In this document: positions 4,599 through 5,645 of the stretch, in pieces
Layout: each line of letters starts with the position of its first letter
Numbering within the stretch: position 1 is the first letter of the stretch
Source: Candidatus Iainarchaeum sp.
GTDB lineage: Archaea > Iainarchaeota > Iainarchaeia > Iainarchaeales > CSSED10-239
Direction of reading: 5' to 3'
Assembly (NCBI GenBank): GCA_028700115.1
Contig: JAQVTI010000011.1
Coordinates: 3,232-35,231 of the forward strand
DNA: 32,000 nt
Program-made: the position numbers and the translations under genes
Notes under the pieces: model-generated
Database searches by the model: none
What the model saw: only the letters and a program-made list of their open reading frames with translations
Told to the model about the DNA's origin: nothing

Positions 4599-4691
4599 TC
4601 AATCTTTTTTTAAACAATAATCTATATTATCTAATATATTATCTTTATTTAATATATCTAATTGTATTGGACATCTTGCGCATTTTTTTCA
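4599..4691 (-). other. In-frame TGA (4689-4691) followed by 29 sense codons to a second TGA (4599-4601): read-through/recoding site or recent nonsense mutation
   Basis: Hand translation past the stop gives ...IKGCPDCKL[TGA]KKCARCPIQLDILNKDNILDNIDYCLKKD[TGA]. The extension adds 3 Cys and completes a C-x2-C-x5-C-x2-C...C pattern. Confidence 0.6.
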
Positions 4692-5645
4692 TAATTTACA
4701 ATCTGGACAACCTTTTATTTGTTGAATTCTCCAATTTTTAAATTGTATTGAATTCCATATTTTATTTATATTATTCAAGTTATTTTTAATTTTGTAAGAA
4801 TAATTTTTAGCAAATCTTGTATAAGGTAATAAAGGACAAGGATATGCTATTAAATTGGTAGAAATATGATAATAATGAATTCCAGCACCGCATTTAAAAT
4901 AATAATCTTTTTTATCTAATGTTTTAAAATCAGATAAATCTAGTTCTATGTTGTTTATAATGCATTCCTTATTTAATTTTTTAATAAATTTTTTATCTTT
5001 AAAAAGTTTAATAATTTCATTAGAATTTATATTTTTATTATTATTTTTTCCTCTTCCTTTAGATAATAATGGGCCTATAATCCATTTTTTTACATTTAAT
5101 TTATTTAAAAATTTAGGAAATTCTAAAATTTCTTTATAATTTTTGGAATGAATTAAAGTTCCTACAATCGTATATATTTCATCTTTTTTTAGTTGATTTA
5201 ATGTTTTTAAAGTATTATTGTATATTTTTTTATTTTTTTTAATTGGATCTCTTATATATAAATGAGATTGAGGATTAGTTCCATCTAAAGATATTTTAAA
5301 TGCTAATAACATTTTTGATTTTTTAATTAAATTATATTTTTTTAAAGAGAATAATCCATTTGAAGTTAAATAATAAGGTAATTCTATATGATCTAAATAT
5401 TTAATTAAATTAATAAATTTAGAATATTTTGTAGGTTCTCCACCAGATATATTGACATATAATATATTTGTTTTTTTATAATAAGCTAATATTTTTTTTA
5501 AAATATTAAATGGAATTTCTTTTTTTATAATTCCATATGATCCATAACAATGAATACATTTTAAATTACAATCAGAAGTTATACTTATATGAACATGTAA
5601 TGGTGCTTTTTTTGCAAACAATTTATCTTGGTATTTTTTATCCAT
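4689..5645 (-). CDS. Radical SAM enzyme with a C-terminal SPASM/twitch-like Cys-rich domain (peptide-maturase type)
   Basis: CNLKCIHC is a CxxxCxxC radical SAM cluster motif and NISGGEP is a GGE SAM-binding motif. C-terminal Cys residues: FKCGAG...YPC...GCPDC, continued after the TGA. Confidence 0.85.
   Translation of the reverse strand: MDKKYQDKLFAKKAPLHVHISITSDCNLKCIHCYGSYGIIKKEIPFNILKKILAYYKKTNILYVNISGGEPTKYSKFINLIKYLDHIELPYYLTSNGLFSLKKYNLIKKSKMLLAFKISLDGTNPQSHLYIRDPIKKNKKIYNNTLKTLNQLKKDEIYTIVGTLIHSKNYKEILEFPKFLNKLNVKKWIIGPLLSKGRGKNNNKNINSNEIIKLFKDKKFIKKLNKECIINNIELDLSDFKTLDKKDYYFKCGAGIHYYHISTNLIAYPCPLLPYTRFAKNYSYKIKNNLNNINKIWNSIQFKNWRIQQIKGCPDCKL

Follow-up and report, generated by a model that had tools for sequence, protein, structure and literature searches.

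The in-frame TGA at positions 4689–4691 of the window (the whole 32,000-nt stretch of DNA that was analysed) was read as a genuine nonsense allele that has turned a radical SAM gene into a nascent pseudogene within an accessory peptide-maturation cassette. A probability of about 0.7 was assigned to this reading. The in-frame TGA is an ordinary event of a known kind and represents neither selenocysteine nor a new genetic code. The organism is a DPANN-type archaeon. Archaeal markers (TBP, ribosomal protein L21e, AglB/STT3 and DUF655) were present at orthologous loci, and the nearest named AlaRS relatives are annotated as Candidatus Diapherotrites or Iainarchaeum. The assembly consisted of 965 kb in 47 contigs with 22.4% G+C and was 89% complete. 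Features of the locus and further in-frame stops of the same assembly are listed in Table 1.

Table 1. Coordinates of the interrupted radical SAM gene, its neighbours and other in-frame stops of the assembly. Positions are those of the window unless marked otherwise.
Feature	Position	Strand	Basis
Gene of 41-aa precursor-like peptide (core ...VPCAHNQF), first gene of the cassette, intact	5651..5776	minus	ORF and orthologue alignment
Truncated radical SAM ORF, 318 aa + TGA	4689..5645	minus	ORF list and sequence, PF04055, NCBIfam rSAM/SPASM
Premature TGA at invariant Arg319 codon	4689..4691	minus	Orthologue codons, orthologue alignment, two other assemblies
Orphaned 29-codon tail encoding C322, C325 and C344 of the SPASM-type motif	4602..4688	minus	Alignments
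Ancestral stop (TGA) of the radical SAM gene	4599..4601	minus	Aligned with orthologue stops
Gene of 77-aa partner protein, normally coupled to the end of the radical SAM gene, intact	4364..4597	minus	ORF, alignment and gene order
GNAT acetyltransferase, convergent	3816..4397	plus	Pfam PF13673/PF13508/PF00583
Alanyl-tRNA synthetase (alaS), in-frame TGA at class II motif-2 Arg	G000:C2:24053-24055 (L020/L021), outside the window	minus	Reciprocal tblastn
FtsZ paralogue, in-frame TAA at congener Gln	G000:C34:238, 238 nt from contig end, outside the window		Reciprocal tblastn
RelE-like toxin gene, two in-frame TAG at Tyr and Trp positions	G000:C24:14344 and 14362, outside the window		Reciprocal tblastn
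Prepilin gene, TAA at Leu of class III signal peptide	G000:C33:55606, outside the window		Reciprocal tblastn

The radical SAM ORF ends in ...IKGCPDCKL-TGA according to both the sequence and the ORF list. Behind this stop the same frame continues for 29 codons with KKCARCPIQLDILNKDNILDNIDYCLKKD up to a second TGA (4599–4601), which is followed by a single T and the ATG (4595–4597) of the 77-aa ORF. This arrangement, as well as the 91-nt size of the gap between both ORFs, had been described in an earlier note and was confirmed by sequence and ORFs. By base composition, an open frame of 29 codons had an expectation of 0.057. Because a value of about 0.06 makes the open frame alone weak evidence, the decision was left to homology. 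The tail contains no ATG, GTG or TTG, which ruled out its separate translation as a peptide. Frameshifting on the A7 run was also ruled out, since this run is located after the stop and cannot serve to bypass the TGA.

For identification of the residue at the TGA, seven orthologues (340–345 aa, 47–61% identical) were aligned, five close ones retrieved by protein search and two more from related genomes. All of them read through the TGA site and end where the second TGA lies. An ending of the family at ...CPDCKL, named in the earlier note as a refuting case, was thereby dismissed, as all seven continue with three invariant tail cysteines. The alignment, proposed in the same note as a check, placed Arg at the TGA position in seven of seven orthologues, within the pattern CKL-R-xx-C-x-RCP(I/V)Q(L/N)D...C. 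The respective codons were CGA (L010, L017) and AGA (L014, L016, L019), each one substitution from TGA. At the aligned gene end, TAA (L014, L016, L019) or TGA (L010, L017) was found. TGA is thus a terminator in the radical SAM gene family itself, because the L010 and L017 orthologues end in it.

Nine residues of the tail region (R319, C322, R324, C325, P326, Q328, D330, L332 and C344) were invariant in the seven orthologues, and invariant tail residues were encoded by differing synonymous codons (TGC/TGT, CAA/CAG, GAT/GAC, TTA/TTG). Judged from these alignments, purifying selection acts on the tail in the radical SAM family. With residues that are invariant in seven orthologues, the gap was correctly taken for former coding sequence that completes the SPASM-type cysteine set. 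Among 55 distant rSAM/SPASM homologues, the TGA site was most often occupied by Lys (19), Arg (12) or Asn (5), with no Cys among the commonest residues, and the three tail Cys columns were kept in 44–48 of the 55 sequences. The regular C-x2-C-x2-U-x2-C-x2-C spacing proposed earlier is therefore not a feature of the family, in which the site is Arg or Lys and never Cys.

The radical SAM cluster motif CX3CX2C was present as C26-x3-C30-x2-C33. A match to PF04055 (E=1.6e-15, 58 bits versus a cut-off of 29.5) placed the protein in the radical SAM superfamily. Four SPASM-type cysteines (C252, C270, C313 and C316) are retained in the truncated ORF, and the full set of seven is present only if the TGA is read through, with C252 (FKCGAG)-x17-C270 (YPC), C313-x2-C316-x5-C322-x2-C325 and C344. 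These columns align with the CxxCxxxxxCxxGC...C consensus of the 55 homologues. The seven-Cys SPASM order claimed earlier was recovered on read-through, but not the exact signature CX9-15GX4C...CX2CX5CX3C...C: the last spacing is x2 instead of the canonical x3, and N, E, D or S replaces the Gly of CX9-15GX4C in the orthologue alignment. All orthologues share an eighth cysteine, C228, as well. The read-through protein gave no match to Pfam SPASM PF13186 at E<=0.01. A precomputed PF13186 match is also absent from the close orthologues, while many distant homologues have one. NCBIfam rSAM/SPASM models extend across the TGA as far as the last Cys (e.g. NirJ2, residues 22–347) with scores far below their cut-offs.

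For structural comparison, the read-through protein was modelled with AF2 using the 55-sequence alignment, instead of an 8-sequence alignment with which pLDDT was below 50 for residues 241–348. The model had a pLDDT of 86 and a pTM of 0.87, with low confidence in the Cys loop 311–322. Foldseek returned full-length matches to SuiB (TMq 0.73, 370 columns), anSMEcpe (0.71), PqqE (0.66) and CteB (0.63). By model and Foldseek, the fold of the C-terminal domain resembles that of solved SPASM enzymes, and the modelled core matches rSAM structures. Matches in a PDB sequence search with the orthologue profile were confined to the rSAM core. In common with SuiB (5V1T), CteB (5WHY), anSMEcpe (4K37) and PqqE (6C8V), the protein has a CX3CX2C core and a C-terminal Cys-rich domain; its read-through model superposes on them over the full length (TMq 0.63–0.73), and a small precursor gene lies immediately upstream. 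It differs from them by an identity of 14–18%, the lack of an N-terminal RRE domain and the deviations in PF13186 match, last spacing and Gly given above. In addition, its SPASM-type domain is cut after the fourth Cys. From these sequence features, the gene was classified as encoding a putative radical SAM peptide maturase of SPASM type.

The cassette consists of the genes for peptide, radical SAM protein and partner in a conserved order and was found at seven orthologous loci (L010, L014, L016, L017, L019, L094, L095). The precursor was aligned with five orthologous ORFs of 41–46 aa, in which C36, H38 and N39 were invariant. Its core motif near the C terminus reads C-x-H-N-(Q/E)-(Y/F/H), with a single invariant Cys. 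The partner, aligned with five orthologous ORFs of 77–86 aa, showed 17 invariant columns and no family match; in orthologous loci, its start abuts or overlaps the rSAM stop. A GNAT neighbour was found in most orthologous loci (L010–L015, L019). NCBIfam models of PapB and AlbA align over residues 14–324 of the radical SAM protein, with scores far below cut-offs (PapB 58 versus 340 bits). The cassette resembles ranthipeptide and sactipeptide systems (PapB/PapA, AlbA, SCIFF/CteB) in the short precursor with a conserved C-terminal Cys adjoining an rSAM/SPASM enzyme. In contrast to these, it has one invariant core Cys and a separate 77–86-aa partner without family match. Within the phylum, the cassette was detected in 4 of 215 genomes, all of one family, and in none of six congeners; it is thus rare and accessory, so that its loss should be tolerable. 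The other three copies in the phylum have no internal stop.

The proposed mechanism comprises one substitution, from AGA or CGA to TGA, which would have hit the invariant Arg codon in the x5 spacer of C-x2-C-x5-C-x2-C. Translation would then end 30 codons early and yield a 318-aa product without the last 29 residues, including C322, C325 and C344. In the solved SPASM enzymes anSMEcpe, SuiB and CteB, the corresponding cysteines ligate auxiliary [4Fe-4S] clusters, one to the first and two to the second. By analogy, the missing cysteines would contribute to both auxiliary clusters, and because both would lose ligands, the truncated enzyme is most likely inactive or badly impaired. The partner gene has no obvious ribosome-binding site and starts one base after the old stop. 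Its translation would normally be coupled to termination at 4599–4601 and would be weakened when ribosomes stop 91 nt earlier. For both reasons, coupled translation of the 77-aa partner is probably reduced.

The lesion looks recent, as the gene has no further defect and both other cassette genes, those of precursor and partner, are undisrupted. At otherwise invariant columns, 13 changes were unique to the truncated copy, most of them conservative, compared with 54 in the most divergent intact orthologue. A recent nonsense mutation was one of three options offered in the earlier note, together with read-through or Sec insertion and an assembly error. It was the best supported one, given the Arg codons and the aligned gene ends, in its form of a pseudogene or truncation allele; the twitch-like enzyme named alongside was graded very unlikely as a working protein (see below).

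For discrimination between a real allele and an assembly artefact, other assemblies of the locus were compared. The same TGA was present in three assemblies, which may share reads or samples: the present genome, the sister MAG GCA_028691725.1 and a Logan contig. The contig of the sister MAG (JAQUYT010000047.1), which ends within the rSAM gene, was identical to window positions 1–5456 except for one SNP at 4856. This T/A difference lies inside the broken rSAM gene and results in Asn264 here and Tyr in the sister MAG; residue 264, which is variable, lies between the first two SPASM-type Cys. The Logan contig, derived from the single run SRR22315503, matched with 100% identity over 4,118 bp. Because the TGA recurs in all three, a one-off consensus error is unlikely, and the assembly error considered in the earlier note was likewise judged less likely. 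No intact near-identical allele was detected among approximately 15 billion public proteins, and the 90% identity cluster of the rSAM protein had no members other than the 318-aa form and a 255-aa form cut by a contig end. JGI metagenome contigs were also scanned for the 38-nt site, the variable base being entered as N, without a match.

An assembly or consensus artefact, or a chance-assembled variant, with the real gene intact and carrying an Arg codon, was nevertheless considered; it was judged improbable. Its main argument comes from other in-frame stops in conserved genes of the same assembly (alaS, the FtsZ paralogue, prepilin and the RelE-like gene). These came out of a reciprocal tblastn comparison with congener G004, which is complete (839,632 bp, one contig), and the reciprocal screen revealed no convincing in-frame stops in G004 itself. 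As alaS and other genes of presumably essential function are among those interrupted, the prior for consensus errors is raised. According to Cooley and Wright 2024 (PMC11017572), an excess of internal stops tracks assembly errors, and artefacts of assembly account for many internal-stop pseudogenes. The pseudogenes and truncation alleles of microbial genomes and MAGs treated there resemble the present case in that one base has created an in-frame stop within a gene that is otherwise intact, as comparison with intact orthologues reveals, and raise the same question of real versus artefactual stops. In the present case, however, three assemblies share the stop, and one of these carries a SNP close by, which argues for a real allele and against an error peculiar to one assembler. 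This SNP, 165 nt away from the TGA, marks the sister MAG as a separate consensus, and the Logan contig was built by a different assembler. The change is also a substitution and not a homopolymer-length error, and the missing intact near-identical allele in the public protein collection counts against an artefact as well.

The other stops were inspected individually. The alaS gene is otherwise intact (approximately 894 aa), and the TGA stands in the context QTSI-TGA-FGD. This site is Arg in 16 relatives and in two solved archaeal AlaRS structures. The closest protein-search match to the AlaRS of this genome had 93% identity. For FtsZ, a second copy with a better match is encoded on contig C18. 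Taken by their sequence, the in-frame stops of the genome replace Arg, Gln, Leu, Tyr and Trp by different base changes and do not point to a single recoding rule. Two TGAs at Arg are presumably unsurprising, since AGA, from which a single substitution leads to TGA, is very common in this AT-rich genome.

UGA is the leakiest stop codon, and Arg, Trp or Cys can be inserted at it. A TGA that is real but leaky could yield some full-length enzyme by near-cognate decoding (the next base being A) in this very AT-rich archaeon, so that the cassette would work at a reduced level and the tail would stay under selection. This was considered unlikely. The 29-codon tail is undamaged with all family-invariant residues kept, the precursor and partner genes are intact, and a second TGA stands at an Arg codon in alaS of the same assembly; but an intact tail is equally expected from a very recent mutation. 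No stimulatory RNA structure was detected around and after the TGA, where the fold z-score of -0.54 indicated unstructured RNA; no Rfam match was obtained for the same region, and ARAGORN found no UCA-anticodon tRNA in the 89%-complete assembly. TGA is the natural stop of this radical SAM gene and also ends 14% of the good ORFs. Relatives keep ordinary Arg codons at both the rSAM and the alaS site, and nothing suggests a selected recoding site. A programmed read-through site was rejected, since no relative has a stop there and neither RNA structure nor an Rfam match was found; local read-through as suggested in the earlier note received no support for the latter two reasons.

The 318-aa protein could also be a working twitch-like enzyme, a new functional form with a single auxiliary cluster bound via C252, C270, C313 and C316. 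The arrangement of the four remaining cysteines may resemble that of twitch-domain enzymes such as BtrN, and the core gave SkfB, a twitch enzyme, as one of its nearest matches in both sequence and fold. Against this, the full Cys set is present in all seven orthologues and most of the 55 distant homologues, the truncation is limited to one near-clonal population, and the stop lies in the middle of a metal-binding loop instead of at a domain boundary. A functional truncated form was consequently regarded as very improbable. It was regarded as similarly doubtful that UGA is partly decoded as Arg, by a suppressor tRNA encoded in the 11% of the genome missing from the assembly or by a near-cognate tRNA-Arg, with both alaS and the rSAM gene expressed at full length. 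If true, this very AT-rich DPANN genome would be caught early in UGA-to-Arg codon capture. Were the TGAs at Arg in both genes real and decoded, a new archaeal code variant would result; the evidence is against it.

For analysis of the genetic code, ORFs of the entire assembly were evaluated. ORFs >=100 aa under code 11 covered 98% of the genome, and TGG made up 0.62% of codons. After removal of antisense shadow ORFs from the genome-wide read-through screen by a best-of-six-frames filter, TGA ended 110 of 764 good ORFs (14%). Coding-like extensions without an early start codon followed 3 of 110 TGA, 3 of 131 TAG and 9 of 523 TAA stops. There is no bulk TGA recoding in this genome, and the standard code fits. 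Alternative codes with TGA as sense (tables 4, 25 or other) were rejected, as TGA is a common terminator and extensions behind it are no commoner than after TAA or TAG.

For selenocysteine, the tRNA-Sec and SPS (SelD) genes and the downstream hairpin that the earlier note had named as checks were searched for, and none was found. In the 89%-complete genome, the best match to the tRNA-Sec model RF01852 had 38 bits (gathering score 47) and all matches were ordinary tRNAs. SelD (TIGR00476) and SepSecS (TIGR03531) gave no match in the genome, with a positive SepSecS control in M. jannaschii. A tRNA-Trp gene was found in the 89%-complete assembly neither by ARAGORN nor by the Rfam tRNA model; a tRNA-Tyr gene (C18:3258-3361) with a 30-nt intron was at first missed by ARAGORN. 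Archaeal selenoprotein genes (UGA and 3'-UTR SECIS, with tRNA-Sec, SelD, PSTK, SepSecS and aSelB) are similar in the in-frame UGA between Cys of a redox or metal site, but here the machinery searched for was absent, the homologues carry Arg or Lys instead of Cys, and the RNA downstream lacks a structured element. Sec insertion, the other form of recoding proposed earlier, failed on the same missing genes and the same homologous residues. TGA as selenocysteine, or reassigned to sense in this organism, was the least probable explanation of all, since it is favoured by nothing other than the codon position between Cys of a metal-binding motif and is opposed by the missing Sec genes, the Arg of the orthologues and the Lys or Arg of distant homologues, and the full coding density, normal TGG use and frequent TGA termination under code 11.

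The preferred reading, a genuine and recent nonsense allele, has several consequences. Annotators should mark the gene as disrupted and treat the 29-codon "gap" as former coding sequence. Work on this undescribed archaeal peptide-modification cassette should express an intact orthologue and not the truncated copy. For the assembly, one data point is added to its pattern of in-frame stops, and the rSAM stop is reproducible across assemblies. The locus also calls for caution in the reading of similar sites: an in-frame TGA between the cysteines of an Fe-S motif mimics selenocysteine or recoding, while the orthologues show a plain change from Arg to stop.
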